From: a virus
IMG/VR virus record: IMGVR_UViG_3300020392_000005
Direction: 5' to 3' (one strand)
DNA: 64,000 nt
Part shown: one piece after another, positions 33,574 to 52,725 of the stretch
How the letters are laid out: each line of letters starts with the position of its first letter
How positions within the stretch are numbered: the first letter of the stretch is position 1
Program-made: the position numbers and the translations under genes
The notes under the pieces: model-generated
Database searches by the model: none
Told to the model about the DNA's origin: nothing
The model's input: the letters and a program-made list of their open reading frames with translations, nothing else

Positions 33574-34330
33574 AACTTATATACTCCACATTTTTGCAAT
33601 CGTCCCAAGCGTTGATTTTTAAATTTAAATAATTCTCTCTATTGACTTTGTAAAACTTAATCCAGTTATACCACTTAAATAGTCTTCGCCACTCATATAT
33701 CCACTTATTGATATTATAGTCTGAAATATGAGTATCACTTTTATAGAATTTTTGACCTCTATAAATGTTGTTAAATTGTTTGTCAATACTAAAGAAGTCG
33801 TGTCCTATGAGATAGACTTCTTTTAATTCTGATACTTCTTTACACGCAACATAACCACTTGTCGTTCCTGTACCCCACTCAACTTGTTCGTGTTCTCTAT
33901 AAATGTCTGTCAAGTTTTTTACTTTGTCTTCTGTACACCAACTTAATGATACTTCTGTTTGATTAGTTTCTTTGTCTTTATATCCGTGTACAACAAATTC
34001 TTTAGAACCTTGTCTTTGATTTTCTATTAATAGTCCGTCTCGTCTTATAGTTTTTATATCTCTATGTTCAGGAAACATACCTTGTATCATCATATCAAAA
34101 TTCTGTACAGGTATCGTAACCCAATCTCTAAAATAACAATTTGCAGTATAACAATAACCACTTCTGTATATTTCGTGCATAATAGGATGGTCAGTTGCAA
34201 CTAATATGTCAGGTGCAAAATCTTTATAGAGATTATTACAACCTATTATAACGCCTCTACCTTTGAGAGACTTTAGATTGAAACCTCTTCTACTTCTACC
34301 ATTACCTATACAAAATGCTCTATTAGACAT
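33536..34330 (-). CDS. Glycosyltransferase-like protein (Maf/DUF115 or sialyltransferase-type Rossmann motifs)
   Basis: AFCIGNGRS, IIGCN, PDILVATD, TTSG and VYLIGHD motifs. Confidence 0.55.
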   Translation of the reverse strand: MSNRAFCIGNGRSRRGFNLKSLKGRGVIIGCNNLYKDFAPDILVATDHPIMHEIYRSGYCYTANCYFRDWVTIPVQNFDMMIQGMFPEHRDIKTIRRDGLLIENQRQGSKEFVVHGYKDKETNQTEVSLSWCTEDKVKNLTDIYREHEQVEWGTGTTSGYVACKEVSELKEVYLIGHDFFSIDKQFNNIYRGQKFYKSDTHISDYNINKWIYEWRRLFKWYNWIKFYKVNRENYLNLKINAWDDCKNVEYISYEGMETQTRSLP

Positions 34331-35339
34331 TAATCAATCTCTCTTTACCATATCTAAACTTGTAAGTATCTAATAGATACTTGTAACCATTACAACCATT
34401 TTCTAAATTTTCAACAAATCTATAATGTTCAGTTAAACAGAAACCTTTGTATTCACACTTATTACATATAGGCGATTTATCTATCTTTTGTTTTTCTTCT
34501 TCTGTCCACTTTATATAATCTTCAAAGTTATCTACTTTTCTAAAATACTCTTTATCATCTTTGTCAAAGTCTAATACTGCTAACTCTCCTGAAGGTGTAA
34601 TATATAAGTGGTCATCTGAATATGCGTTATAAGATTTATCTAAACTATCTAATATATTTAATTCATTAACAAAAGTAAAATCTTCTATTCTTTCGTCTGT
34701 ATCATACTTTGTCATAAAGGCAGGATATTGAGCACATAACTCTAAAATATAATCTTCAAATTGTGCGTCTGTTACCGTATAATTGTTTGCCTGATTTTTA
34801 CTATAAGGTTTTACTTCAACACTTTTAAATCTTTTATTTCTATGTTTTAGTTTTCTGAAATTTTCCCAGAAGTGAGCACTACCTACTTCTTTTAATACTT
34901 GTTCATTTGCTAATACAAGAACAGAAAAATCAACAGGCAACTTTGTCATATTCTCAAATACTTTCATATGGTCTTGTCTTGCAGTAAAATCATAACTAAC
35001 ACTTAAATAATAATCAGGATTAAAAAATATAGGATTCATTGTAGACAAGTTAGTATTAATATTAATCTTATCTTTGTAATAAAATCTAATAGTATTAGTA
35101 ATCGCTTCTAATTTATCTTTCTTAATTATACCTATCTCGCCACCATATAAGTCAATATGGTTTATATCTCTATAAGTTTGTATATGTGCAAGTATATCAT
35201 TTAACTTGAAATGGTCTATTGTCTTCGTATCACCTAATTGTTTAGGTGTAAGATAACACCAAGGACATCTAAAATTACAATGATAACTAGGATTGATAGA
35301 TAAATTAATCTTCGGCAATGTCATATTCAAGTTCCTCAA
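34323..35339 (-). CDS. Radical SAM protein with partial SPASM-type C-terminus
   Basis: CNFRCPWC (CX3CX2C), LYGGE, NTNL; C-terminal CNKCEYKGFCLTEH...C. Confidence 0.9.
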   Translation of the reverse strand: MRNLNMTLPKINLSINPSYHCNFRCPWCYLTPKQLGDTKTIDHFKLNDILAHIQTYRDINHIDLYGGEIGIIKKDKLEAITNTIRFYYKDKININTNLSTMNPIFFNPDYYLSVSYDFTARQDHMKVFENMTKLPVDFSVLVLANEQVLKEVGSAHFWENFRKLKHRNKRFKSVEVKPYSKNQANNYTVTDAQFEDYILELCAQYPAFMTKYDTDERIEDFTFVNELNILDSLDKSYNAYSDDHLYITPSGELAVLDFDKDDKEYFRKVDNFEDYIKWTEEEKQKIDKSPICNKCEYKGFCLTEHYRFVENLENGCNGYKYLLDTYKFRYGKERLINV

Positions 35340-35877
35340 TTATATTTAAAATCTTTCTTTTACTATATCTGAATAAAATTAATCTTTTAATATGTGACCA
35401 TATATTATTATCTTTAAATAAACCGAAATATAAAAAACTATACGCAGTATGATTTCTCATAAACAATCTATTCAATTCATTATATTCTGCTTCTCTCTCC
35501 ATAGGTTGTTCAACTCTAACACCTATTTGACCATTAACATTTGCCACTTGTTCTTTTACTTTAAAAAATATACCAGGTACATCTTTTAGTTTTTGTATTA
35601 CATCAAAAATTCTTTCTATTCTATTCTTGCCTGGTACAGCAATCATAACATACCAGTTTAGATAGTGTTTGTTTCCGTAATGACCTTCACAACTTGATAG
35701 AGGTAGATAACCTTTTCTAACAAGTGCTTTACAATGTTGTAATACACCAGGTTCTACTTCGTTATCATACTCTTTGTCAAACGGACTTACTGATAAGGCA
35801 TAGTAACCATTTGAGTAATCTAAATCTTGTTTTTCTGAGGCGTGTATTCTGCCATTAGGAAATAATTTATTCTTCAT
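35305..35877 (-). CDS. Hypothetical protein with an SSCEGH motif (reminiscent of the TYW3 N-terminus)
   Basis: EVEPGV...ALVRKGYLPLSSCEGH. Confidence 0.45.
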   Translation of the reverse strand: MKNKLFPNGRIHASEKQDLDYSNGYYALSVSPFDKEYDNEVEPGVLQHCKALVRKGYLPLSSCEGHYGNKHYLNWYVMIAVPGKNRIERIFDVIQKLKDVPGIFFKVKEQVANVNGQIGVRVEQPMEREAEYNELNRLFMRNHTAYSFLYFGLFKDNNIWSHIKRLILFRYSKRKILNIIEELEYDIAED

Positions 35878-36392
35878 ATATTAAAATCAAAACACCCGAC
35901 TATTCTATCTTCTTTACCAGGTACACTTTTCCAATCACTTACTTTGTGTTGCCAAGTCTCTTTGTGATTTAAGATAATCATATCACCTTTACCTGGGTGC
36001 AACATACAAGACAATTCGTTAGTCTCTTTATTTCTAACTGATATTGAACCGCCTTGTTCTCTATTACTAGAATTTGTAAAGTACATTAATATAGCAAGGT
36101 TCGCTCCTTCTTTCAAATCATTGTGCCAATTAGTTGATGGATTATCAACACCATTGACTATTTCAGGTTGACCGTATAGATTATACTTACCTGATATTAG
36201 TTTAATATATTTATCACCCAAATAATTATGGGTTATTTTAAGTGCGTTGTCTACTTCTTTCGTGTGAATACAAACTTTATATTCTCCTTGTTGTTTAAAA
36301 GGTATCTCAACACCTTCAAAAAATCTAAATGCAACAGGATCCTTAAAAGGATATACACCATTAATTAATACATTTTCTATACCTTGTATCAT
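35874..36392 (-). CDS. 2OG-Fe(II) oxygenase
   Basis: WHND (HxD), ILMYF, GGSI, PGKGDMIIL, WQHKV, RIVG. Confidence 0.85.
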   Translation of the reverse strand: MIQGIENVLINGVYPFKDPVAFRFFEGVEIPFKQQGEYKVCIHTKEVDNALKITHNYLGDKYIKLISGKYNLYGQPEIVNGVDNPSTNWHNDLKEGANLAILMYFTNSSNREQGGSISVRNKETNELSCMLHPGKGDMIILNHKETWQHKVSDWKSVPGKEDRIVGCFDFNI

Positions 36393-36835
36393 CTTCTAAC
36401 AAACCTCCACTTAATTGCAAGTCTAGTCTCATCACCATAATAAGGATTTGCTCTATGCCTTAAATGTGATGGCATTATAAACAATGCGTTCTTCTCAAAT
36501 CTATGTTTCTTCTTACCTTCTATCTGTAATTCTCCACCTTTTGTACTATCACCTTTTAAATATAGTATTGCAGTAATCTCATTATTCTTATCGCTATCTG
36601 TATGATAACCTATTATATTCTTATTCTCGTCTTTAGTGTTTGTAGAGATAATATATCTGACAATCAAAGGACCTAAATCAGGATAATTTAAACGACATAT
36701 TGTATCTGTCCATTCAAAATTATCATCTAACTTCGTGTGTATATTCTTTTCATATAACGGCAGGTCTAACTTATTAATTGCGTTTAATAAAGTATTACCT
36801 TCTGTCATAGTTAAGACATTACGCTTGATTAACAT
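36389..36835 (-). CDS. 2OG-Fe(II) oxygenase (prolyl-hydroxylase-like)
   Basis: YHTD, ITAILYL, GGELQI, PSHLRHRA, RLAI. Confidence 0.85.
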   Translation of the reverse strand: MLIKRNVLTMTEGNTLLNAINKLDLPLYEKNIHTKLDDNFEWTDTICRLNYPDLGPLIVRYIISTNTKDENKNIIGYHTDSDKNNEITAILYLKGDSTKGGELQIEGKKKHRFEKNALFIMPSHLRHRANPYYGDETRLAIKWRFVRR

Positions 36836-37925
36836 TTTTTATCTCATTTTCATAAGGCGTCATTTTGATATAATGCAAACCATTTGCATTTAATATATCT
36901 TCACCATTTCTTTTCATCTTTTGACAATGTGCCTCTACAACTCCTTTTTCTTTGTAATCTTTTATTGTTTTTCTACACCCATTACAAATACTAAACATAG
37001 GACAACCATAACAACTCTTTTTCATAGTTGTTAATTTTAAATCATCTTGCAAAGGTGTAAAAAACTCACCTTGCATTTCTCTTTCAAAATCTATCTCTTT
37101 ATCTTTATCATCACCGAAAGCACCACAACTATAATAGTCGCCATCTGGTTGTAAACATCTTATACCCTCATCACACTTTCTACTTAACGGACAACTCGTA
37201 TGTTCAGTCTTAATTGTTGTCATCATTTGTTTTGTATTGAACTCCCAAGGTGAAAGTCCCATACGCCAGATATCAACATATATCTTATATATGTCTGATA
37301 ATAAAAATGGATTTTTCTGTTCACCACTTGCCATTGCATAGTTTAGTTTACACTCAACACCTGTTTTCTCATAACGCCAGAAGTTATGTAAAGTGCCTTC
37401 AGGTTCATTATTGTTTGACATCTGTTTTGCAAGTCTAACATTTTTGATTGCGTTGTGTACATTTTCTTCTGTAATAACTGATATAAAGTCAGGTCTATAA
37501 CCACAATATTCTAACATTGCGTCTGAACACTTCCAAAAGTCTTCTTCTGTAAATTCTGTAAAGTCACCTTTCAATCTACCACCACCATATTGAAAAGAAG
37601 TTGTGATACCTACTCTATCATTATTAAATAAGTCAACCCAACGACCTGGTTTCTTATAGAAAGGCCATAAGTTTGTTGTAAGTGCAAGTGAAGTATCGTA
37701 ACCTTTATTATCTAACCATTCAATAATCTTCCAGTAGTAATCAGGTGCCATCATCAATGGGTCACCACCATTTACGATAATAGTTTTTGTTTCAGGAAAC
37801 CTTTCTAAAAAACGAAATATCTGGTCGTGTTTTAACCAGTTTTTCTTTTCATTAGTCAATTGTGTACTTGAACAAAAAGTACATTTGAAATTACACAATT
37901 CAGTAGGTTTTATTATTAGGTCCAT
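36819..37925 (-). CDS. Radical SAM/SPASM protein
   Basis: IIKPTELCNFKCTFC, NGGDPL, TTNL; C..C...GDYYSC and CYGCPMFSICNGC...C. Confidence 0.93.
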   Translation of the reverse strand: MDLIIKPTELCNFKCTFCSSTQLTNEKKNWLKHDQIFRFLERFPETKTIIVNGGDPLMMAPDYYWKIIEWLDNKGYDTSLALTTNLWPFYKKPGRWVDLFNNDRVGITTSFQYGGGRLKGDFTEFTEEDFWKCSDAMLEYCGYRPDFISVITEENVHNAIKNVRLAKQMSNNNEPEGTLHNFWRYEKTGVECKLNYAMASGEQKNPFLLSDIYKIYVDIWRMGLSPWEFNTKQMMTTIKTEHTSCPLSRKCDEGIRCLQPDGDYYSCGAFGDDKDKEIDFEREMQGEFFTPLQDDLKLTTMKKSCYGCPMFSICNGCRKTIKDYKEKGVVEAHCQKMKRNGEDILNANGLHYIKMTPYENEIKNVNQA

Positions 37926-38536
37926 AATCCTATCCAGTTTAATCCTGTTTGACTTTCTTTGTTTCTAATCCAGTAATCACCACTATCATCTTTCTTAAAA
38001 CCAAATTGTGTCATAATTTGATAGTGATATGGTTCTTTTTGTGCAGACATCTGGTTCATTGTTAGATGTACATAATCAAAATATGTTCCACTAGGACATA
38101 TAATATCTTTATCTTTAAATAAGTTTATTGTTTCACACCACATTGTTCTTAATAATCTTCTTCTATATGTTGCGTCTTTTCTTTTCATATATCCTGCATA
38201 CTTCATAGACCCACATATGATATGGTCTTTGTAAATATGAAACATACCTACACCTTTAATAAATGTATTAGGCGTTTTAGGTTGTACCCATTGTTTCTCG
38301 CCTATTGTTTGTTGTGCAACATTATATAATTCTATGTCTTCTTCTTTCGTACCTAACCACAAAAGAAAGTGTGCTTGTCTTTCACACAATCTAGGCATAT
38401 AAGGTTTCTGTACAGGAAATCTATCTAGTTGTACTTCTATATTCTCTGGTAAATTGAGATTATTAGGTTGCAACAAGATTTCGTTGTACTCGTACATCTT
38501 CAATATATCTGTGCGTAAGTTTGTATACACACTCAT
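37916..38536 (-). CDS. Hypothetical protein in the radical SAM cluster
   Basis: ORF filling the gap between two rSAM genes; true start may be the internal Met (MYEYNE). Confidence 0.55.
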   Translation of the reverse strand: MSVYTNLRTDILKMYEYNEILLQPNNLNLPENIEVQLDRFPVQKPYMPRLCERQAHFLLWLGTKEEDIELYNVAQQTIGEKQWVQPKTPNTFIKGVGMFHIYKDHIICGSMKYAGYMKRKDATYRRRLLRTMWCETINLFKDKDIICPSGTYFDYVHLTMNQMSAQKEPYHYQIMTQFGFKKDDSGDYWIRNKESQTGLNWIGLWT

Positions 38537-39515
38537 TGAGTTCCTCCTTATATCTGTAATCGTGGTTCATAAAACAACCTAGTGTACATCTATCTAAAAA
38601 TTCACAACTAGCACAATTATATTTTTCTAAAAAACTATTTTCTATTCTACTATTATCTTTTCTTTTTATTGGCGACTTATATTGACTTAATGATTTTTCA
38701 TCTTGTACTAGATTACCACATTGACATAAAGTACCATCTGCTAATATAAGTTTTGATACTCTACAACTTGCAAAGTTTTTCTTATTGAAAATCCAATCTC
38801 TAACAGGATGTACATTAGGATATTTGTCTATACAATGTTTGAAAAATTTTAATAGTAATTCATCGCTAGGCATATTGTATTTTGCGTGTTCATCTGGCAT
38901 ATAATAATCAAAGTAGATATACTTACCACTCTTATAGAGATAGTCAAAGTATTCATCGCCTTGTTCTAAATAATATGTGATATTAGGTTTTGTAAGTAGA
39001 CAAGAAAAACAGGTTACTTCATCACCCCAATATTCTACATTTGATTTAAATATCTCAAAATCTTTTTTATTAAATCTACCTCGTGGGTCATAACTAGTTG
39101 TTAATCTAGTTTCAATACCTTCTTGCCTAGACCAAGTTATTAAATCTAGTATCTGTTCATTACCTTGAGGTGTGGTTACTAAATTAGATACCCAATTAAT
39201 TACACATTTCTTATTGTAATGGTCACATATCTTTTGTATACCTTTTACAAAAAGTTTATAACCTTCATTTAATTTCTTTGTGTAGATTGCAGGTGCAAAG
39301 ACTTCGCCACCCATAACATTAAAGGTAACTTTTTGCATTAACTCTTTTGATATAAACTTCTCTACTGACGGAAGTTTATCTAATACATTTTCAGTACCGA
39401 TAGTGTCTTCGTGGTTTTGCCAACAGAAAGCACAACGCAAATTACAAAATTCAAATAAATGAATAGTGTACTCTTGCTCTGGGTCTCTTTTTGGGTCTAA
39501 TAAAAACTCTCGCAT
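38463..39515 (-). CDS. Radical SAM/SPASM protein
   Basis: CNLRCAFC, MGGE, VSNL, SYDP.GRF; C...DGTLCQC and CASCEFLDRCTLGC...C. Confidence 0.93.
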   Translation of the reverse strand: MREFLLDPKRDPEQEYTIHLFEFCNLRCAFCWQNHEDTIGTENVLDKLPSVEKFISKELMQKVTFNVMGGEVFAPAIYTKKLNEGYKLFVKGIQKICDHYNKKCVINWVSNLVTTPQGNEQILDLITWSRQEGIETRLTTSYDPRGRFNKKDFEIFKSNVEYWGDEVTCFSCLLTKPNITYYLEQGDEYFDYLYKSGKYIYFDYYMPDEHAKYNMPSDELLLKFFKHCIDKYPNVHPVRDWIFNKKNFASCRVSKLILADGTLCQCGNLVQDEKSLSQYKSPIKRKDNSRIENSFLEKYNCASCEFLDRCTLGCFMNHDYRYKEELNECVYKLTHRYIEDVRVQRNLVAT

Positions 39516-39523
39516 TTAAACTC

Positions 39524-40636
39524 CTACGAGTTTGCGAATAGTCTATACTTTCCTAAAGTGTCTGTATCGTCTGATTTTTTTAATGAGAATAGATATTGTA
39601 AAAAAGAATAGTTAATATTACCTATATCAAATCTCGGTATGTACGATAGACTAGATGGACTATTCACCGTCTCGGTTATGATTGTGTCAAAATCTGATTT
39701 AGAAAGAGTTGACTTAACTGCCTTGTCTAAATGGTTCATAAAGTAATCAGGACTAGGTGAATTTTGAAAGTCGTATAGGTCTTTGACTAATTCTTTTAGT
39801 GCAGTTTGTTTTTCACTTGACAAATTATCAATATTCATTATGTTGACAGCACCATTGTTTGCAGTAGGTTTCTCTACAAATACTTCACTATCAGCGAAAG
39901 GTGCTAAAGGTGTAATGCCTTCAAAGACATTATCAGCATTTAAGTTGACATCATCAGCAGTATAACCTAATGCTTCTTGTTGATTAGTATTTAACAGATT
40001 GAGAGCTGCACCCTCTCTAGCGTCTGTAAATACTTCTTTGTAAAATCTTTTTAAGAATTTTAAATATGTGTCTAATAATTTATCTTCGTGTGTATCGGCA
40101 CCTGCAAAGTATTCGCCTAATAATAATTCTATTGATAAATTTAAATCCCACTCTTTGATAGTATCTAAATCTAAAGCACCTTGTACTCTAAAGTAACCTT
40201 TAACATCTCCTAGACCAGAATTTAATTGTGTCAAATCTAAAGTATGTGTAGGTTGCAATTGTGTATTTGCAATAATCTTTTCGTGGTGTAAATAGATATC
40301 TACATATTTTTGTATTGCGTCTTCGTCAGCGAAAGGCAACATAGTCTTTAACCATATAGTTACCAACTCTAAAAATGCCTGACTATCACAATATATAATA
40401 ATCTTACCTAGAGAATTACTTTTTAATCTTACATCATTAAAGAAACCTATCATACCATTAAACTTCGTTTTCATTTCGTTAACGCTATGAGTATGATTAA
40501 TTAATGTACCACGATAAGTTGTTTGTAGCTCTTGGTGCATTGCATTGCCTTTATCAGCAGATATAACATATCTGTTAGTATGACAATCAATACTATCGTC
40601 AAAAGTCATATAAACTTTATTAAACAGGTGTAGCAT
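39524..40636 (-). CDS. Hypothetical protein (370 aa) in the radical SAM cluster
   Basis: Long ORF overlapping its upstream neighbour; no motif recognised. Confidence 0.6.
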   Translation of the reverse strand: MLHLFNKVYMTFDDSIDCHTNRYVISADKGNAMHQELQTTYRGTLINHTHSVNEMKTKFNGMIGFFNDVRLKSNSLGKIIIYCDSQAFLELVTIWLKTMLPFADEDAIQKYVDIYLHHEKIIANTQLQPTHTLDLTQLNSGLGDVKGYFRVQGALDLDTIKEWDLNLSIELLLGEYFAGADTHEDKLLDTYLKFLKRFYKEVFTDAREGAALNLLNTNQQEALGYTADDVNLNADNVFEGITPLAPFADSEVFVEKPTANNGAVNIMNIDNLSSEKQTALKELVKDLYDFQNSPSPDYFMNHLDKAVKSTLSKSDFDTIITETVNSPSSLSYIPRFDIGNINYSFLQYLFSLKKSDDTDTLGKYRLFANS

Positions 40637-41312
40637 TTAGTACCTCTAAATCTTTTGTTCTTGCTTCTTTGTATTTCTTACTATCAAATTTACCTTCGGC
40701 AATCGCCCAAGTCATTAGAAACATAGGGTTTTCTTTAACACCCCAAAAGTCTAATAGACATTTGCCTTTAAACATATATTCTTTAAAGTATTTAGTATAG
40801 TTTTTAACAATTTTTTCTTCTGGTTTATTATAGTAGAAATAAAAATCTTTGTGTTTTAATAGACTAACAAAGTTGATACCTTTAGTATCTTCTGTTTCGT
40901 CTTTAGGATATAGGTCAACATATTCTTTAAATGCACCTTCTCCTACGATAGACATATTGTATAGTGGTAAACTTTCTAATTTACTTGCCCACTTATCAAT
41001 AGTCTCTAAATTTTCTGATATAAATTTTGCGTTCTTAATTTCTTTTACTAGACCTTTATGTTCAAATAGAACAATCATAGCAGCCTTTTCTAGTAATGGT
41101 ATGTTTACTAACATAGAACTCTCAAAATATTCTTTTAGTAATTCATCATCATAATTAGATAGGTCGCAAGGTATATCTAAATTACTTAAATATGTTAAGA
41201 ACTGAGCACCTTTTAATGTACTCTTTTCGTAATCAATCATATAACTTTGTGTTTTATCTTCAAAGTATTTTTTTAAATCTTTCAATTCAATAGGTACAAT
41301 AGTTTCAATCAT
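40620..41312 (-). CDS. Hypothetical protein (about 230 aa), translationally coupled to the CHxS-tail protein
   Basis: ATG at 41312 (MIETIVPIEL) overlaps the upstream TAA (TAATG); FLTYLSNLDIPC. Confidence 0.6.
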   Translation of the reverse strand: MIETIVPIELKDLKKYFEDKTQSYMIDYEKSTLKGAQFLTYLSNLDIPCDLSNYDDELLKEYFESSMLVNIPLLEKAAMIVLFEHKGLVKEIKNAKFISENLETIDKWASKLESLPLYNMSIVGEGAFKEYVDLYPKDETEDTKGINFVSLLKHKDFYFYYNKPEEKIVKNYTKYFKEYMFKGKCLLDFWGVKENPMFLMTWAIAEGKFDSKKYKEARTKDLEVLNATPV

Positions 41313-42085
41313 TATCTTCTTCCTCTGGATCCGTGGCACGAACCGTGGCACGAACTATGACAAATTGTTTTTGATAGTGTGTAAGTATTTCCTCTTTCAA
41401 CACCATAAGCACTTGCAAGAGAACTTAAAAAGTTTTCTAAATTACTATCGTCAATTACTTGACCTGCTTGTAAATTACTAGGTTGTGATGGGTTTAAGGT
41501 TACTCTTTGACTAGTTGTTAAGTGTGCGATTTCTGTTTGATTATATTGAGTACCTGCACCTGTCATTGATACAAACGCATTAGTACTCTTAATATTAGTA
41601 TAGTTGTTCATTTCAGCTTTTAAAACACTATAAATTGTATTCGCTTGAATTAATTGTGCTGAACTACCTAGATTATTACCATTAATAGAAATAGTAACCG
41701 CTGATACTTCTGTCATTGTAGATACTGAACCAGTCGCACCTGAATTACTACCTGTTAATATATCGTTTTGAACAAAGTTAGTTTGTCCTGAACCTGGTAC
41801 TACATTTCTTACTTTTAATACATTGTTTGAATAACTAACAACGGTACCTACGGTTCCTGAAATAGAACCTGTAACCGTTTCGTTAACACTAAAATTACCT
41901 GTTGCATTTACTAGGTTCAATTGCATACCATCAACTACTCCTCCGAAGTCAGACGCAGAAAAAGCACTATGTCCAGGTAAGTTATCTGTACCCCAAACAA
42001 TATCTTTATCAGCCACATCTGTTACCACTTCTTTAAATCTATCTACAATGTTTTGAGCAGTAATCGGATTCGTTAAATTTACCAT
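41312..42085 (-). CDS. Virion-like protein with C-terminal (Cys-His-Xaa-Ser)3-RGRR tail; candidate substrate of the radical SAM cluster
   Basis: Ends TICHSSCHGSCHGSRGRR; contains two F...E/D.(V/L)TG..SG..G.V modules also found in baseplate proteins of this window. Confidence 0.7.
   Translation of the reverse strand: MVNLTNPITAQNIVDRFKEVVTDVADKDIVWGTDNLPGHSAFSASDFGGVVDGMQLNLVNATGNFSVNETVTGSISGTVGTVVSYSNNVLKVRNVVPGSGQTNFVQNDILTGSNSGATGSVSTMTEVSAVTISINGNNLGSSAQLIQANTIYSVLKAEMNNYTNIKSTNAFVSMTGAGTQYNQTEIAHLTTSQRVTLNPSQPSNLQAGQVIDDSNLENFLSSLASAYGVERGNTYTLSKTICHSSCHGSCHGSRGRR
41331..41354 (+). repeat. 12-bp direct tandem repeat (CCGTGGCACGAA x2) encoding the SCHG repeats
   Basis: Directly visible; GC-rich relative to its surroundings. 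Confidence 0.85.
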
Positions 42086-43113
42086 ATCGCCTCACTTTTC
42101 TTTTGTGCCAGTTGTTTCATTAGAGATTTAGGGGCACCACATACATCGCCTTGCCATCCTAGTTGGTGACAATCGCCACCACAATATTTAAATACATCAC
42201 ATTCCCAACATTTTGGGTTTCTTGCTACTTCGCAAGCAATATTATTCAATCTCTTTGGATTATTTATAAGGTCTATCATAGGGTCATCCAGAGAACCGAA
42301 GTTAAACTCGGGACTTGCGTTAGGACAACCGCCTATTGTGCCTGTTGCGTTGAGTGTAAATAGTTTTTGTTCGCAATCACGGCAGAAAGTACCTTGTTTT
42401 GTGTTACCTGACTTAAATTTTGAGTAAATAGTTTCTAAAAATTCATTTTCAAACCAATCTCTTGCATTATATTGCTCTGATTGTTCGTGCATTTTCAAAA
42501 ACCACTTGTCTTGTTCAATATTTGTTGGGAAAATTTCAGGATGTAAGTTAGCATTGCCGTTTCCAGTCAATCTTTCTAGTGCCATTTCAGAAACACCCAA
42601 GTCTTTTACCCATTGTAGTAGTTGTATGGGTTCAATATTGACCGTATCTTTGGTTACTGATATAAAAAGTTTGATTGTTATGCCTTCAGACAATAAAGTT
42701 TCAACATTTTTACGCCATAAGTTAGATTGTTTCTCATTTGCGAAACGAATATTAGGATCCCAACTAGTTCCACATCTATTTCCTAGTGGACCTTTCATAA
42801 AATCTATATGTTCTTGTTTTAATTTGAATACGAGATTAGAAGTAACCCCATAAGATTGATGTTCCCATAGACCTTTTGTTCTATCGTACACATATTGCAT
42901 TTCAGATACAGGAACTAAAAAAGGTTCGCCGCCGTGAAACTCTAAATGTGCGATATCGTGTTTATGATAATTGAATTTTCTGAAATTGTGAAACCAATTT
43001 ATGATTTTATTTGTATCCCAATATACTTTAGGACCGTTCTTACCTGAAGTGAAACAATGTTTACAATTTAGATTGCAGGTTTCGGTTGTTTTAAGATAAA
43101 ACATCCAATTCAT
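42079..43113 (-). CDS. Radical SAM/SPASM peptide-maturase-like protein
   Basis: LKTTETCNLNCKHC, FHGGEP, TSNL, SWDP.IRF; CRDC...GTIGGC and CWECDVFKYCGGDC...C; start at MNWMFY (TAATG overlap). Confidence 0.93.
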   Translation of the reverse strand: MNWMFYLKTTETCNLNCKHCFTSGKNGPKVYWDTNKIINWFHNFRKFNYHKHDIAHLEFHGGEPFLVPVSEMQYVYDRTKGLWEHQSYGVTSNLVFKLKQEHIDFMKGPLGNRCGTSWDPNIRFANEKQSNLWRKNVETLLSEGITIKLFISVTKDTVNIEPIQLLQWVKDLGVSEMALERLTGNGNANLHPEIFPTNIEQDKWFLKMHEQSEQYNARDWFENEFLETIYSKFKSGNTKQGTFCRDCEQKLFTLNATGTIGGCPNASPEFNFGSLDDPMIDLINNPKRLNNIACEVARNPKCWECDVFKYCGGDCHQLGWQGDVCGAPKSLMKQLAQKKSEAIW

Positions 43114-43595
43114 TAGACAACTCCGATACTTAACCCCCAAGTATCTGCTTCGTTATCTACATAATGATATTGACCTTCCTTGATATACACACCTTCATCA
43201 GCGTATGCTATCTTATTCTCTCCTTCAACATTTACTTTCTTCTTGCCTTTAACAACATACAAGTAAACATCTAGGTCGTCTTTATGTGATTTAAAACTAA
43301 CACCTGGTTTTTGATTTACAAATAAATGTATATTACTTCTTTTCTTTCCAGTAATATTATGTACAACTTCGTCAACACACTCCGTTATCCATTTAGTTTC
43401 TTCTAAACCTTCCACCTTAATGGTTTTAAATCTCTCATACTCTCTCAACCATTCACCATAGGTCATATGTTCTTTGACCTCTCTATCTCTACCTTCTTCG
43501 TCAATGTAGAAAATCTGTCTTGCGTTATATCTATCGTGGGATTGAATTTCCTCTTTCAATCGGGAAACCCATAATTGCGTTTGTTCATCTGCCAT
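43113..43595 (-). CDS. Cupin/JmjC-like oxygenase
   Basis: SFKSHKD (HxD), V...VKGKK, YIKEGQYHYV, LSIG. Confidence 0.75.
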   Translation of the reverse strand: MADEQTQLWVSRLKEEIQSHDRYNARQIFYIDEEGRDREVKEHMTYGEWLREYERFKTIKVEGLEETKWITECVDEVVHNITGKKRSNIHLFVNQKPGVSFKSHKDDLDVYLYVVKGKKKVNVEGENKIAYADEGVYIKEGQYHYVDNEADTWGLSIGVV

Positions 43596-43606
43596 AATAT
43601 AATCTC

Positions 43607-44905
43607 CTATCTACCAACTAAGCACTCAACAAGTCTTTCCTCTTCTCTATCATCATTGATAAGAACTTTACCGACTAAAGCACCTACTCTAGGTTCTGCT
43701 TCTCTTCTACCACAACCTGGTTTAGCGCAACTTACAATTAAGTCACCTTTTCTAACTGGACCACATACTCTTACTGGCACTCTTCCTGTTAATGCAATAT
43801 TAACACTTGTACCTTCTAAATTATGGTTCATTAAATAAGCAGGCATATCTGATACGACACCTGCAACTTTTTGACAATGGTCTTCAACACATTGAGTTGT
43901 TTCAGCGTGTCCGCCTATACACATAATAGTACCTTCTTCGTACTCTTTATCTGAACTATATTTTTCTGCCAAGTCAGCGTATTGTGCTTGTGTAGCAGTT
44001 GTAGTTAATACATTTGAAGCAGGGTTATAAAATAAACCTGTATCTGTTTTTAGTCCTTGATTACCTGTAGGACTATCTGAAAAAGTTATATACTTCGTTG
44101 CGTTAGATGAGTTATCAGAAGTTAAAGCAACTTGATTAGCAACATCAGCAGTACCTGTGATAGTGTTTGCAACTAAAGTATCAACCGTTAAAGTTGATGA
44201 AGCAACATTTAATTTATCTATGGTTACTGAACTATTTGCAATTTGTGAAGTACCTACGGCATTGTTTGCTAACATTGTAGAAGTTACCGTACCTGTATCT
44301 CCAGTTGTGATTAATGAACCTGTAATATCAGGTATTGTAATTACTCTATCAGCAGTAGGATTAGAAACTTGTAATCTAGTTTCATTGTCGTCAGCAGTAG
44401 AACCTTCAAATAACATTGAAGAACCATTAATAGTTAATCCTGCACCGACTAGTGTACCACCTGAAGTAATACCACCTGTTGTATTTAATTGTTCATTACC
44501 AAAGTCAATTGTTCCACTTGCAGAAATAATTGAACCACTTGAAATCGTTATGTTTGATATCTCGGCAGATTGACCTACATCTATTGTAGATATACCAGAT
44601 AAGTTTGTATTTAAAGAAATGTTTAATGTATCTGGTGCTGATACCGTTGCAGTTAAACCAGTACCTGTTGAAACTAACATTGTGTTACCAGAAGCAACCG
44701 CCTGTGTGTTTGAGCCATCTGATAATATGAAACCAGCAGCCGCAATTGCGATTGAGTTAATTTCGTTTACAGCACCGATAACGGTAGTTGCAGATAAAGT
44801 TGGTGATAAGTTTGCAATATCACCAAAGTCATTAGCCGCAAGAGCATTAAATTCTACTCTTAACTTATCTAAACTATCTGTTTCTGATACTTGTCTTACT
44901 GCCAT
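43607..44905 (-). CDS. Tail fibre/fibritin-like protein with C-terminal peptidase G2-like intramolecular chaperone domain
   Basis: D.L..LRVEFN N-terminus; AQYADLAEKY, AGVVS..PAYLMN, IALTGRVPVRV.GPV.KGDLIVS. Confidence 0.7.
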   Translation of the reverse strand: MAVRQVSETDSLDKLRVEFNALAANDFGDIANLSPTLSATTVIGAVNEINSIAIAAAGFILSDGSNTQAVASGNTMLVSTGTGLTATVSAPDTLNISLNTNLSGISTIDVGQSAEISNITISSGSIISASGTIDFGNEQLNTTGGITSGGTLVGAGLTINGSSMLFEGSTADDNETRLQVSNPTADRVITIPDITGSLITTGDTGTVTSTMLANNAVGTSQIANSSVTIDKLNVASSTLTVDTLVANTITGTADVANQVALTSDNSSNATKYITFSDSPTGNQGLKTDTGLFYNPASNVLTTTATQAQYADLAEKYSSDKEYEEGTIMCIGGHAETTQCVEDHCQKVAGVVSDMPAYLMNHNLEGTSVNIALTGRVPVRVCGPVRKGDLIVSCAKPGCGRREAEPRVGALVGKVLINDDREEERLVECLVGR

Positions 44906-45159
44906 TATTTGTTTCCTTTATCGCATAATGTTTTTAATATATCTTTTATCTCAAACAATTCTGCCTTTAAATTATTTATCTCTCTACACATATCCTTCAT
45001 TGCGTTAGTTGAGTTTTCTCTATTCTTTACTCTTTGCATATACATTTGATATTCAGTTTGATTATTGTTAACGATAGCACCACTTCTGTTATCTCTAACT
45101 AAAAAATCATTATGTTGTACTTTAATAAATCTACTCATAATACTATATCGCCAATGCAA
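44905..45159 (-). CDS. Small conserved hypothetical protein
   Basis: LVRD..SGAIVN...Y..Y and C-terminal coiled coil; probable start MSRFIK. Confidence 0.6.
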   Translation of the reverse strand: MHWRYSIMSRFIKVQHNDFLVRDNRSGAIVNNNQTEYQMYMQRVKNRENSTNAMKDMCREINNLKAELFEIKDILKTLCDKGNK

Positions 45160-48100
45160 TACCTCTCATATCTCGTAAGATTGGTGGATAAGAAGAGTTT
45201 GTTCCTTTCAACACAATCTTAATTTGAAATGCAGAAAAAGCATTTAATCCTGCAACACTATATTTGTATTCTCTAAAGTCTTCGTCTGTTTCAGAAGCAG
45301 GTACCGTTGCGTCAGGTCTACCATCTGTATTGAACGGCACAAAATCTAATTCGTGTATATCTCTAACTTCGTCAGCGCTTGTTGTTCTAAAATAAACTTC
45401 TACTTCACTTGAACTTCTAACTACCTGTGTCAATCTAATATCTAACGCTGTTGAGTTGTTTGTCAATACAACAGGTTTAGTAATATAGTTTGAAGCAGTT
45501 GAGTTATCAGCAGGTGCTGTATCAGCAACAAAGTCTGGTGTGTTACCACTATCAGGACTATTCAATCTGTTTGCGATACAGAATACACTATTTCTTGCTA
45601 AGTCAATAACAGGAGATAGTTTTGTATTTGTACTTGATAATTCAAATATCGTAAAGAAAGACTTTTGACCATTCATACGAGTTGTTTCATTAGGTTGAGA
45701 CATAACTGCCTGTGGCGCTGTAAAGTAAATATCATCTTGTAATGATACAGGTATTTTATTTGAATTAGTTGTTAATGAATATGGTGTTTGCGTTCCGTGA
45801 ACTGACTTACTTGTTGTCGTTCTTACAAACGCATTTATATTACAACCAGGAACAGCAAGAGTTTGAATACCTGCAATGTTCAATACATCTATTTGTCTGT
45901 TTTGAGTTGAAGTAATTGCAGTACCTCCTATATCACCAGTCGTGTTTGCATTAGTTGAACTAGGTGAAGTAATATCAAAACTATCTAGTGTAATATTTGA
46001 AATTTGCGTATATGTTCCATTAATATCTGTATGTGCAAGACCATTATGAGTACCATTAGGAACTCCTGCAATCGTAACCACAGAATTTGTATCGTGTAAA
46101 TTGTGATTAGGATGGAATACTCTAATTACTTTAGAGTTGTTAGTTGTTCTCAATGGGTTTTGTTTTAATGTTCTTGCTGGTAATTCTTTGTTTGCTAAAT
46201 GAACGGTACCAGTAACCGCTTCAAACTCAGCTCTCTTAATTGTAAATTTAATATCTTCGTTTTGTTCAGTTGTCCAAGTAGAACCGTTTTGAGATTTAAA
46301 CATAACACCAGCATATGGTTGTTGTGATATTGTTCTATTAGAACCTATGTTTGTTTCTCCTAATCTACCTACATAACAATTGTATTCGTTTGAGTTTGAT
46401 AGAATTACAAAACAATATTCTGTTTTATCTTGTATGTACACAGGCGCAGGAAAAGTAAATGTAGTTTTTACTGAAGCGTCTGAACTTGTATTTACTGAAC
46501 TAGGGTTTAATGATACTTCACCGAAAGGTAAGATTTTACTTCCAGGATAACCATTAACCGTATTTCTTAATTGAACCGTTATAGGTATGTTTGCGTCTTT
46601 TGTTGAGAAGTACAAATCAATAGAAGTTAAGAATACACCACCTTCGTCATCAACCATTATAGTTTGTGCTAATGGGTCTGCCCAACCCACAACTCTACTA
46701 CCTGCTCTTGTTGAAGTTTCAAGTGTTTGTCTTGTTTCTGTAACCGTGTTTTGTACACCTCTAAATTCTCTAGTTGAAACGATTGTATCTCTAACCGTGT
46801 TTAATAATCCTCTTGCAACATATTCAGCGTTTGCAGCTGTTTCAACAGCGGCAGCGTCTTGCGAGTTAGTTGAAGATGAAGTTAATCTAAATGTTCTCTC
46901 ACCTGTTCTCCATCTAGGATTACTATTTACTTTCGGGTCAGGTATTGCAAAAGTACCAGATACAGCACCGTTTGCGTCTGTAACCAAATTACCACCAAGA
47001 GAACCACCACTTGGCGTTATGTATGCAGTAATATCAACATTGTCAAAGAATGGATAAACTCTTGTATTAGGTTTTAATCTTGTTGCAACAAAGTCAACAT
47101 TTCTACTTCTGATAAATGGAACAAAGGCAGTATCAACTACTCTATCTCCCATACTTGTTCTAATAGTTTGAGGTACGGCAGTTGTTGTAATTCCTGTTCT
47201 ACTTTGGTTAACTTGGTTGATAGAAGTAATAGTCGTTCTTTGCATAATTGCACGACCTCTCATAAATCTACCACCTGTAGCAGTAACCGCTGAAGTTAAC
47301 GGAGCACCTGTCCAGTTTGTTTGCCAATCATTCCATACGGTACCTAGTGCAATCTCATTTTGATTAGGTACTCTACCTTCTCTTAATAATTGGTCCCAAG
47401 CACCTGTATCAGAATTTACAACTAAATCTGGTGCTCTTTCTGTTTCTCTCCACTCATCACTTGAAGGAGTTAATTCTATTGTACCTACCCAACTGAATAT
47501 AGCAAATGGGTTTACATTGATTGCTTTTGAAGCAAAAGGTTGATTAATTAAATCAACATTAGTGTAAGGTAAAGTTAATACTTCACCTGTTCTTTGATAG
47601 TTTGCAGCTGTTCTATCAGCGGCAAGAAGTGTTGTACCATCTTCGTCTATCTCTTCTAATTCAACAGCGTCTTGTTTAAATAGAGGTCTCATTATTTTCT
47701 TTCTATAATCAATAGAACATCTATGAGAACCATTTGTAACCTCACCGATACCGTGACCGTCAAAGTTATCTACAATAAATCCGTTTTTAAATCTGTCAAA
47801 ACCATTACTATCTTGTATCTGTAATGCTTGAGCAGCAGTTTCTAATAATGATAATTGAGTATAGTATTCTACTCTATCAATCTTTTTGTTAATCTCTCCG
47901 ATATCTCTCATTGTATATCTTCTATTATCAACCGTTTCAAAATTTACATCTTCAGGATTTAGAACATATGCAGGAAAATTAATTGTGTATAAGTGCATTG
48001 CATTTTCTAATTGACCAGGTTCTTGTGGTCTTGTATCTGGCGCACCTTGTAGTGTTTTAAATTCACCTTCTTTTGTAATGTAAAGTTTGTCTATTCTACC

Positions 48101-51264: not shown

Positions 51265-52725
51265 TTAAAATTCAATAATCAATTTAACATTTTCAGTCTG
51301 GTCAGCACTTCTTGCGACAGGCGCTCTGTTTTCAATGTACATTACATCTCCACTATCTTCGTCTATCTCTGGTAGTGAGTGACCACTAATTAATGAAACA
51401 TTACCTATTGTTTCGGTTACTCCTGTTGGTGTTCCTGTTGCAGAAGAAGTAGCACCTGTTATTACATCTGTGCCACTAAACAATATTCTGTTTCCGTTTG
51501 CGTCAACACCTTCATCACTATATCTCGTTTGCGTGTAAAATAAAATTTTATTAGCACTATCAAATTGTACTACTTTACCTACAGCACCTGTATTTGTTTG
51601 TGTAATCTTTTCGTCTACTTGGAATGAACCAGGTGTACCTGAAAATCTAACTGCTCTTGTTGCTCTTAATGTTGTAACCGTAGCAGCAGAACCACTTGAT
51701 TTCGGGTCTCTAATTAATGCAACTCTTCTAAAGTCGTTTGCAGTTGTAAAGTCACCAGAGTTTGCAGTTTCAGCACCTTCAAAAGAAGTATTAAGAATTA
51801 CAAAGAAAGCACCTAATTCTTCAAATGGGTCAAAACCGTGACCACCTTTTGGTTCAATTATACAATCTAATTCAGCACCTGTTAGTGAACCACCACCAGC
51901 AGTATTAATATCTGATACTCTAATATTTGCATAAGAATATCCTGAACCTTTATTTGTAACCGATACAGCAGTTACCGAACCACTTGTAATAGTGATTGAT
52001 ACTTCACCACCAGAACCATCACCTCTCATAGGAATGTTTGTGTATGTTCCAGCAGTACCACCTGTACCAGCAGTTTTAATTTTTACTATGTTTACAGCAC
52101 CATCAACAGCACCATTGGTTACATTTGAGTTTGATGAAACTCCCATAAAGTCAGTTGATAAAAAGTTTGCTTGTGCAGACGCAGATAGAGTGAACATATA
52201 CTTCCATTTGTAATCATCTGAAGTTTGTAAGATAAGTGTTGCGTTCTCACCAGTAGGTTCTACCGTTGAAGGACTATCGTTATTATTATCTAAACATTTG
52301 TATACTTGAAAGTTGCTGTTCATTACATAGAAGTTTGCGTCAAATAGATTAGTAGCGCCAGAATTAGCAGATTGGATAGAGGTACCACCTGTAATTCTAT
52401 TACCATAATCGTGTCTGTAATAGTCATATGTTGTTCCACTAGTCCAGTTAATTCTAGGAGCTGCGAAACTTACATCTGAGCTGTTTATTCTTTTTACAGC
52501 CAATAAATCATCAAAAGTATCATACTCTTGTTGTACACTATCGGCAGGTGTAATTGGGGTACTATCAGTACCTAAATTTTCTGTTCTTCCGTCTGGTCTA
52601 GTTTTAGTACCAAACGCAGAAGGTTTTCCGATTCCTAGATAATATACATTACCTGAAGCACCGAAAGAAGTTTGAAATGCTTGTGCATTGTTCCTTCTGA
52701 ATTTACTTGTTATAATTGCTGGCAT
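51265..52725 (-). CDS. Baseplate wedge subunit gp8
   Basis: YLGIGKP, PR.NW..G..YD.Y, FYVMN...VYKCLDN, D.YKWKYMF, SGD.MYIENR. Confidence 0.9.
   Translation of the reverse strand: MPAIITSKFRRNNAQAFQTSFGASGNVYYLGIGKPSAFGTKTRPDGRTENLGTDSTPITPADSVQQEYDTFDDLLAVKRINSSDVSFAAPRINWTSGTTYDYYRHDYGNRITGGTSIQSANSGATNLFDANFYVMNSNFQVYKCLDNNNDSPSTVEPTGENATLILQTSDDYKWKYMFTLSASAQANFLSTDFMGVSSNSNVTNGAVDGAVNIVKIKTAGTGGTAGTYTNIPMRGDGSGGEVSITITSGSVTAVSVTNKGSGYSYANIRVSDINTAGGGSLTGAELDCIIEPKGGHGFDPFEELGAFFVILNTSFEGAETANSGDFTTANDFRRVALIRDPKSSGSAATVTTLRATRAVRFSGTPGSFQVDEKITQTNTGAVGKVVQFDSANKILFYTQTRYSDEGVDANGNRILFSGTDVITGATSSATGTPTGVTETIGNVSLISGHSLPEIDEDSGDVMYIENRAPVARSADQTENVKLIIEF

Follow-up and report, generated by a model that had tools for sequence, protein, structure and literature searches.

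A near-invariant Cys-His tail on a phage protein encoded among radical SAM enzymes

The virus sequence IMGVR_UViG_3300020392_000005 of IMG/VR, all 64,000 nucleotides of which form the window analysed here, belongs to a marine T4-like myophage: its gp6 shares 65% identity with the gp6 of Pelagibacter phage Mosig and 54% with that of HTVC008M, and all of its large open reading frames (ORFs) lie on the minus strand. One of these (41312..42085, minus strand) encodes a protein of 257 amino acids, here termed the CHxS protein, that consists of an alpha/beta core, a beta-barrel insertion and a C-terminal tail of Cys-His repeats. The gene is found within the VrlC-to-gp14 host-recognition (tail-fibre) island, where cassettes of radical S-adenosylmethionine (rSAM) enzymes have been noted (PMC7029224). 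Is the tail a substrate of the enzymes encoded around it, and if so, what kind of protein bears it? We lean towards the answer that the protein is made late and associates with the virion, and that the enzymes of the rSAM/oxygenase cassette mature its tail. In hundreds of phages and some predatory bacteria, the tail is near-invariant and the same rSAM enzymes are almost always adjacent; therefore, it is probably modified before the protein joins the particle.

The tail and the body that bears it

The translation of ORF 41312-42085 ends T-I-C-H-S-S-C-H-G-S-C-H-G-S-R-G-R-R-stop, and the three cysteines of this tail are all that the protein possesses, as a first-pass annotation of the DNA had read. 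The tail (residues 242-257, C-H-S-S-C-H-G-S-C-H-G-S-R-G-R-R; 41315..41362, minus strand) is presumed to be a site of modification or metal binding. An alignment of 50 homologues shows no variation at its residues C, H, C, H, C, H, S, R, R, R, against an average identity of 40% in the columns of the body; across the family, bodies diverge to about 30% identity while the tail is kept. That family is large: at E <= 1e-3, an exhaustive HMMER search delivered 824 clusters of 50% identity, 530 of them at E <= 1e-10, where a word-indexed search had given 71 homologues. Exactly three C-H-x-x units followed by a C-terminal R-x-R-R occur in 136 of 143 new cluster representatives; the exceptions have two units (two representatives), four units (one) or variant forms (four, for instance without the middle Cys). 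The number of repeats, which was to be compared among homologues for variation, is nearly fixed. Nor do homologues lose the tail. Judged from these alignments, the conservation of the tail is far beyond chance. As rare variants among the representatives, P0234 and P0260 have tails without the middle Cys (C-H-S-N-H-x-N-T-C-H-x-S-[K]-R-S-R-R), and P0070 and P0071 have four units each.

At the DNA level, the three units are the 12-nucleotide (nt) stretches TGTCATAGTTCG, TGCCACGGTTCG and TGCCACGGATCC, of which the second and third are identical at 10 of 12 positions, and the GC content of the tail is 54%, compared to 35% for the whole gene. These features had suggested a GC-rich 12-bp tandem duplication. 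The composition and the likeness of the units stand, but a recent duplication can be ruled out as the origin of the repeat, because the three units are ancestral to the whole family. Further, tail codons interchange freely across 78 distinct DNA versions (TGT with TGC, CAT with CAC, Ser AGY with TCN, Arg AGA with CGN). This synonymous variation therefore points to selection on the peptide, rather than on a nucleic-acid element or a recently duplicated stretch. The fourth position of the unit is mostly Ser, at times Asn or Ala. Therefore, a His-Xaa-Ser chemistry on every unit, as was originally offered, is not required.

The body is a folded protein. An AlphaFold (AF2) model built on the 50-sequence alignment has a mean predicted local distance difference test score (pLDDT) of 88.8 and a predicted TM-score of 0.81. 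Its core is compact and alpha/beta, with helices at residues 10-26, 148-160 and 213-232 and strands at 165-189 and 235-241; a core of about 180 amino acids is conserved in the family. In both alignment and model, the N-terminus is a conserved amphipathic helix (with conserved positions Q11, D15, F17 and V21) and no signal peptide is present. The idea that this structural body stands in for a leader was not upheld, given that it is a confidently folded domain and not a leader-like peptide. The tail has low pLDDT in the AF2 model and is predicted to be flexible; a short modelled helix at residues 244-247 would place Cys on one face.

The core modelled alone from a 190-amino-acid homologue (P0050) has a pLDDT of 87.6. 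Its comparison with solved structures revealed no relative (best Foldseek E 0.58, best VIA-wide Z 4.0), which does not by itself prove a new fold. A shape search of the ESM Atlas returned only matches with TM < 0.5, the family profile reached E 0.74 at best against solved structures by sequence, and NCBIfam and Pfam gave no family for the CHxS protein at E <= 0.01. In the three cultured-phage records examined, those of Atu_ph07, RSL2 and DT01, the gene is annotated as hypothetical.

Residues 52-129 (41699..41932, minus strand) form a small beta-barrel inserted in this core. It holds two E-T-V-T-G-S-x-S-G-type modules as found in baseplate proteins, and has the module signature G-E-T-[IV]-T-G-x-x-S-G-x-x-G-x-[IV] together with an EF-Tu-domain-2-like barrel. 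The barrel superimposes on a baseplate chain of Klebsiella phage KP1 (9f4a_AY; VIA Z 7.4, root-mean-square deviation 2.4 over 71 residues), and on a module of about 80 residues in many cyanophage structural, fibre and baseplate proteins (BFVD E 1e-5 to 1e-6, 77-86 columns). By BLASTP, residues 56-140 match the window's own structural proteins: residues 523-578 of a gp7-like protein of 853 amino acids (E 7e-6), residues 366-438 of a Gp8-like protein of 486 amino acids (ORF 51265-52725; E 2e-4) and two sites in a VrlC-like protein of 2036 amino acids; as the database was small, these E-values are generous. The sequence and fold matches bear out the recurrence of the body's baseplate-module motifs in gp7, gp8 and the 2036-residue protein that the first-pass annotation had proposed. 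Its description of the protein as a chimera with a baseplate-type repeat body holds for residues 52-129, but these are a clade-specific insertion into a different, conserved alpha/beta core. In the alignment, residues ~59-135 are missing from homologues of 177-195 amino acids; the insertion is confined to a clade of 255-260 amino acids, and about 155 of 202 family members have 160-220 amino acids and no barrel. The barrel is a lineage-specific decoration borrowed from baseplate proteins and is outside the conserved mechanism.

Predicted late promoter, virion detection and coupling to an rSAM enzyme

The sequence TATAAATA, a T4-type late-promoter consensus, occurs at 42261..42268 (minus strand), 183 nt before the ATG of the CHxS gene and inside the preceding gene, which encodes the enzyme rSAM-A. 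This internal site is kept in five related loci (L010, L097, L099-L101) despite surrounding synonymous changes. Within 400 nt upstream of the CHxS start, TATAAATA is present in 55 of 77 IMG/VR loci, compared to 2.8% of other 400-nt windows of the same loci, and its positions cluster at -180 to -200 and -40 to -60. Thus, the CHxS gene appears to have its own predicted late promoter; so far as sequence can tell, this is what would be expected for a protein needed in structural, not catalytic, amounts. The window has 13 TATAAATA sites, all on the minus (coding) strand (271, 975, 11738, 18028, 29747, 29756, 32518, 33156, 42261, 52750, 54399, 59268 and 63103); their total is not above chance and their strand bias is complete. 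Most of them are 15-35 nt upstream of a gene start, giving a map of T4-type late promoters for the phage.

Is the protein found in particles? In the Agrobacterium phage Atu_ph07, the homologue AUZ94952 has 296 amino acids and a calculated mass of 31.89 kDa, and for its neighbours AUZ94958 and AUZ94959 the masses come to 66.07 and 21.66 kDa. The three values equal those listed for gp170, gp176 and gp177 in Table S5 of the virion proteome published by Attai et al. (2018; PMC6102473); therefore, the CHxS homologue is gp170. It was detected there with 8 unique peptides at 35% coverage. The enzymes of the cassette (gp165-169, 171 and 172, of which gp169 is the homologue of the 230-residue partner described below) are absent from the virion list (PMC6102473). 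Further, gp170 occurs in gel bands 1-9 and is most abundant in band 1, the top slice, where proteins of 87-139 kDa peak; the peak of other proteins near 30 kDa is in bands 7-8 (PMC6102473). This anomalous migration would fit an oligomer stable in sodium dodecyl sulfate (SDS) or a covalent cross-link. The detection speaks for the earlier proposal that the protein is incorporated into the virion, though not for a protein confined to virions, since copies are also encoded in Bdellovibrionota chromosomes.

The CHxS gene is closely packed with its neighbours. The stop codon of rSAM-A overlaps the CHxS ATG by 7 nt, and the TAA stop of the CHxS gene and the start of the partner gene share the sequence TAATG. 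rSAM-A (42079..43140, minus strand) is a radical SAM/SPASM protein with CNLNCKHC at residue 22 and CX2CX5CX3C at residue 311, and passes the SPASM model TIGR04085 (28.9 bits, cut-off 27). We examined 93 further loci, 80 from IMG/VR and 13 from prokaryote genome bins; because contigs end, all counts of components in them are lower bounds. rSAM-A was found in 89 of them. The coupling to the adjacent rSAM enzyme that the first reading of this locus had assumed is thus seen both in the overlap and in the company that the gene keeps. The start of rSAM-A is uncertain: the listed TTG makes it overlap the preceding cupin gene by 28 nt, and an in-frame ATG nine codons downstream (M-N-W-M-F-Y...) would remove that overlap.

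The cassette and its carriers

The order of genes in the window is a fibre-like protein of 432 amino acids, a cupin, rSAM-A, the CHxS protein, a partner of 230 amino acids (p230), a protein of 370 amino acids (p370) of unknown family, rSAM-B, an unknown protein of 206 amino acids, rSAM-C, two 2-oxoglutarate (2OG)-Fe(II) oxygenases, an unknown protein of 190 amino acids, rSAM-D and two further unknowns; all of these genes lie on the minus strand. The fibre-like gene, directly upstream (43607..44905), has PHROG tail-fibre matches. The JmjC-like cupin, the first gene of the cassette (43113..43595; PF07883, E 3.5e-7), is syntenic in Atu_ph07, RSL2, DT01 and metagenome loci. p230 (40620..41312) belongs to phrog_20767 and no known family. 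Its predicted complex with the CHxS protein (score 0.00, mark 0.32) has no bearing either way, and its ESM Atlas feature scores, all < 0.8, are uninformative. p370 (39524..40636) has no match in Pfam, NCBIfam or PHROG. The oxygenases, of 148 and 172 amino acids, lie at 35874..36835 (PF13640).

The other three rSAM enzymes are rSAM-B (38463..39515; CNLRCAFC and the SPASM-like CX2CX5CX3C), rSAM-C (36819..37925; CNFKCTFC) and rSAM-D (34323..35339; PF04055, CNFRCPWC), the last without a SPASM motif. rSAM-C is the most conserved enzyme of the cassette, with 53-62% identity to its orthologues in Atu_ph07, RSL2 and DT01. rSAM-A, -B and -C all combine CX3CX2C with a SPASM-type CX2CX5CX2-3C; in rSAM-B and -C the motif is present and the TIGR04085 scores (21.4 and 22.6 bits) are under the cut-off of 27. 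Of the PF04055 matches, only that of rSAM-C (31.0 bits) exceeds the gathering score of 29.5 bits. The nearest NCBIfam neighbours of rSAM-A, -B and -C are the peptide and protein maturases PapB, DynA, anSME and HxsB/C, all far under cut-off: specific maturase models, these and others, score 20-40 bits against cut-offs of 170-650. rSAM-A and rSAM-C matched no solved structure by sequence at E <= 0.001, and PADLOC returned generic viperin-like matches to the rSAM cores only.

The cassette travels as a set. By tblastn, each of the six loci examined first has separate orthologues of the cupin, rSAM-A, p230, rSAM-B and rSAM-C, and four of them also have one of rSAM-D; across pelagimyophage-like, phiKZ-like and Rak2-like phages, the orthologues of each rSAM enzyme form a group of their own. 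Among the 93 further loci, p230 occurs in 88, rSAM-B in 78, rSAM-C in 74, the weakly detectable p370 in 67 and rSAM-D in 64, and the C-terminal domain of the fibre-like protein is encoded upstream of the cassette in 62. That domain (about residues 300-400) has the signature Y-A-D-L-A-E-x-Y ... G-V-x-S ... P-A-x-L-M-N ... G-R-V-P-V, matches the C-terminus of Atu_ph07 gp176, a virion protein, and has no conserved Cys residues. The fibre-like protein may be the structural partner of the CHxS protein.

Searched against 50,697 phage records, the 257-residue protein (tblastn) and the region 36000-46000 (megablast) gave no match; relatives there were reached only via a shorter CHxS homologue and the p230 gene. 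By tblastn, rSAM-A and p230 each match 15 of these records, with the same accessions. The carriers include Ralstonia phages RSL2, RSF1, FLC4 and RsoM3USA, Burkholderia phages FLC6, FLC8 and SURPRISE13, Agrobacterium phage Atu_ph07, Sinorhizobium phage Phosso and Pseudomonas phage pPa_SNUABM_DT01. The tail of the CHxS homologue matches 14 records, 13 of them among these carriers and one, weak, in an unannotated uncultured-phage record (E 0.7). A comparative review of jumbo phages mentions neither radical SAM nor SPASM nor JmjC (PMC7824862). PhiRP12 and RP31 were considered as carriers and set aside: the rSAM cluster that they carry resembled another cassette, in which no CHxS gene was evident, and the RP31 virion proteome was uninformative.

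The cassette is missing from the cultured pelagiphages Mosig, HTVC008M and Melnitz. At the equivalent site after its VrlC-like gene, Mosig (MT647606.1 52000-90000) holds a different enzyme island of about 20 kb with MoaA-like rSAMs, Asp/Arg hydroxylases, aminotransferases, a carbamoyltransferase, methyltransferases and nitroreductases. The island thus serves as a place where sets of modification enzymes are exchanged.

Members of the family are also found outside phages. Several contigs (178-299 kb) of Bdellovibrionota/Bacteriovoracaceae metagenome-assembled genomes (MAGs) encode family members of 202-214 amino acids with the canonical tail, along with rSAM-A, -B, -C, -D and p230. One such island (L014) is flanked upstream by transketolase-like, NusB and YceI genes and downstream by SHMT, FabF, FabD, alanine racemase and MlaD; in a Pseudobdellovibrio contig, CarB and LepA are near the cassette. 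A T4-type capsid gene (gp23) was not found in the Bdellovibrionota genomes searched. A mis-binned jumbo phage was rejected as the source for two of the loci (L014 and L018), with housekeeping genes on the sides examined and no gp23 match. The housekeeping flanks and the lack of a T4-type capsid gene therefore make these copies chromosomal. The chromosomal cassette (L014 5372-16073, on a Bacteriovoracaceae MAG contig of 247 kb; L107 6756-7799) has six rSAM genes, and extra unknown ORFs separate rSAM-A from the CHxS gene. About 15 kb downstream of it, among housekeeping genes, lies a gene for a fibre-like Peptidase_S74 (endosialidase-chaperone) protein.

A Methylococcales MAG contig (L022 5091-5468) encodes a protein of 125 amino acids with a signal-peptide-like N-terminus and the C-terminus C-Y-S-N-C-H-G-N-C-H-G-N-C-H-G-S-R-G-W-R. 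Near it are only distant rSAM-A/C-like genes (22-28% identity). From its sequence, this protein may represent a separate, secreted branch of the tail motif.

Explanations and their meaning for the family

We propose that the CHxS protein, folded and expressed late, becomes part of the particle or is fixed to it, probably in the region of the fibres and baseplate, and that its flexible tail, (Cys-His-x-Ser)x3-Arg-x-Arg-Arg-COOH, would be the substrate of the surrounding cassette: the cupin, the SPASM-type rSAM-A, -B and -C, rSAM-D, the 2OG oxygenases and the 230-residue helper. The enzymes would act on the tail in the cytoplasm, prior to assembly. By analogy with SPASM maturases, the chemistry may be Cys-centred, such as oxidation of Cys or its cross-linking through thioethers; the migration of the CHxS homologue far above its monomer mass on SDS gels would then be accounted for. 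The proposal rests on a divergent folded body with an invariant flexible tail, a gene translationally coupled to that of a SPASM enzyme, between three and six rSAMs that are each conserved separately, with oxygenases, apparent late expression, and the detection of the protein, but not of the enzymes, in a virion preparation.

Several points weigh against this proposal. The link between the enzymes and the tail is drawn from gene neighbourhood and conservation only. NCBIfam and Pfam detected no RRE/PqqD-like recognition domain, protease or exporter in the cassette. Virion membership comes from one data set and a distant homologue (some 35% identical across the final 52 residues), in a preparation that was purified with polyethylene glycol only and holds evident non-structural proteins (PMC6102473); therefore, the evidence that gp170 is a virion component is good, not conclusive. 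The chromosomal copies of Bdellovibrionota show that the CHxS protein needs no virion. Finally, the Cys/His tail could simply bind metal, unmodified.

This last possibility is the best surviving alternative, albeit one that we hold to be unlikely: the tail would hold Zn, Fe, Cu or Ni and serve the fibre or baseplate for structure or for sensing, and the enzymes would act on another target, such as the upstream fibre-like protein. Metal-binding His motifs occur at the tips of phage proteins, as in the HxH iron sites of T4 gp37 and of the apex of P2 gpV and phi92 gp138, and in the zinc sites of PAAR proteins. The likeness is in short, regularly spaced metal-ligand residues at the end of a protein with which a contractile-tail phage attacks its host. 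The three Cys and three His, spaced i/i+4 and invariant where the fourth position takes S, N or A, would suit such a site, as would the modelled helix at 244-247 with its Cys aligned on one face, and a fibre-like gene accompanies the cassette in two-thirds of the further loci (62/93). However, the T4 gp37, P2 and phi92 sites lie inside trimeric beta-helices and have no dedicated enzymes, whereas the model of the CHxS protein, a globular monomer, predicts a flexible tail, and this tail is accompanied by rSAM enzymes. Metal-binding tails usually vary in length and order, while the repeat number, the spacing and the RxRR are fixed across the 824 clusters. Moreover, rSAM-A is translationally coupled to the CHxS gene specifically, and three to six rSAM orthologues are always present, even in chromosomes without a recognisable fibre gene of the 432-residue type at the locus.

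It is improbable that the protein is a scaffold for assembly or delivery of an rSAM metallocluster or cofactor (compare HydF and NifEN-type proteins), or an Fe-S carrier for the SPASM enzymes. Cys/His ligands on a flexible tail, and several rSAMs each conserved separately, would agree with this role. The homologue, though, was recovered at 35% coverage from a virion preparation and the enzymes were not; the gene has its own predicted late promoter, typical of stoichiometric structural proteins; and NCBIfam, Pfam and fold searches revealed nothing similar to a known scaffold.

In its logic, the described system that comes nearest is HXS, an antiphage system in which HxsA is matured by the rSAM enzymes HxsB and HxsC with HxsD, gaining 8 Da in its last unit (Li et al., Nat Commun 2026, PMC13128918). 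It, too, has a folded protein with tandem His-x-Ser units rich in basic residues, several rSAMs and a small helper (PMC13128918). A phage-borne analogue of HxsA that blocks DNA entry for superinfection exclusion can be imagined on this basis, and the basic residues, the several maturases and the mass gain of HxsA (PMC13128918) would favour it. We nonetheless judge this even less probable than a scaffold. HxsA has an N-terminal export signal, a domain that binds peptidoglycan, and five HxS repeats (PMC13128918); the CHxS protein has neither signal peptide nor peptidoglycan-binding domain nor NCBIfam match. An invariant Cys starts each of its units, of which there are exactly three, at the extreme C-terminus and followed by RxRR. 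Its cassette has three to six rSAMs with a cupin and 2OG oxygenases, and is associated with phage late and fibre genes and the virion, not with bacterial defence. rSAM-A scores 30.4 bits against the HxsB model TIGR03978 (cut-off 370), over residues 10-116 of the N-terminal core only, and rSAM-C 30.5 bits against the HxsC model TIGR03977 (cut-off 267.9), over residues 8-85 only. As regards a counterpart of HxsD, the small protein that binds HxsC, NCBIfam gave only weak rSAM-core matches to Hxs families in ten cassette proteins (four further ORFs were scanned with Pfam only). The PADLOC matches were generic. On every feature that can be tested in sequence, the CHxS system falls outside HXS. Late promoter, fibre-module location and virion detection point instead to a particle component.

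Membership of the broader rSAM/SPASM maturase superfamily is another matter: CX3CX2C is present in rSAM-A, -B, -C and -D, and rSAM-A passes the SPASM cut-off. Two kinds of known enzyme invite comparison. anSME/AtsB is a SPASM rSAM that modifies a Cys or Ser in a folded sulfatase, within the motif C/S-x-P/A-x-R. The last CHxS unit, C-H-G-S-R, is likewise a short motif that ends in Arg, but that unit (C-H-[GSN]-S-R in the family) has no Pro/Ala, and Arg follows the third unit only; the body is not a sulfatase, there are several different rSAMs, and the anSME model TIGR03942 gives 33.4 bits against a cut-off of 349. PapA has Cys-X3-Asp repeats that are cross-linked by the thioether-forming rSAM/SPASM enzyme PapB, yielding ranthipeptides. 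Among NCBIfam models, that of PapB is the nearest full-length neighbour of rSAM-A (residues 16-326, E 5e-10), and the evenly spaced Cys of short repeats recall the substrates of PapB and of QhpD, which acts on a protein subunit, QhpC of quinohemoprotein amine dehydrogenase, rather than on a released peptide. However, the PapB model NF047865 gives 39.1 bits against a cut-off of 340, the CHxS tail has no Asp/Glu, and the substrate would be a folded, virion-associated protein of about 180-260 amino acids.

Least probable of all is a classical ribosomally synthesized and post-translationally modified peptide (RiPP), in which the 16-residue tail would be modified, cut off and set free as a small bioactive peptide whose leader would be the body: the repeat core does stand at the extreme C-terminus beside SPASM enzymes, and the conserved N-terminal helix (Q11, D15, F17, V21) could serve as a recognition element, but NCBIfam and Pfam revealed no protease or transporter in the cassette, the "leader" has 170-240 residues and is modelled with confidence as a folded domain, and the homologue was recovered as a protein in virion preparations.

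What would a matured tail on a particle protein mean? Maturation by rSAM enzymes is known for RiPPs, for a few enzymes (sulfatases and quinohemoprotein amine dehydrogenase) and, since 2026, for the HXS defence effector; we found no description in the literature of such maturation for a phage particle protein. If the tail is modified, it would represent new chemistry for building or arming virions. Members of the family occur in marine pelagimyophage-like phages, in phiKZ-like and Rak2-like jumbo phages that infect plant and human pathogens, and in predatory bacteria. These facts allow a wider suggestion, which we offer as tentative: three unrelated lineages of contractile-tail phages and the predatory Bdellovibrionota may share a dedicated multi-rSAM pathway, by which a covalent structure not described so far would be installed on the Cys-His tail of a protein used to attack host or prey. 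The product could be cross-links within the tail or to a fibre/baseplate partner, or an enzyme-built metal site. Such a pathway, if true, would be a new class of protein post-translational modification that finishes virions chemically and is needed to recognise or penetrate Gram-negative envelopes. It would have a tractable model, as Atu_ph07, RSL2 and pPa_SNUABM_DT01 can be grown. Further, it might explain the rSAM and oxygenase genes in the host-recognition islands of marine myophages, which are usually filed as auxiliary metabolic genes.

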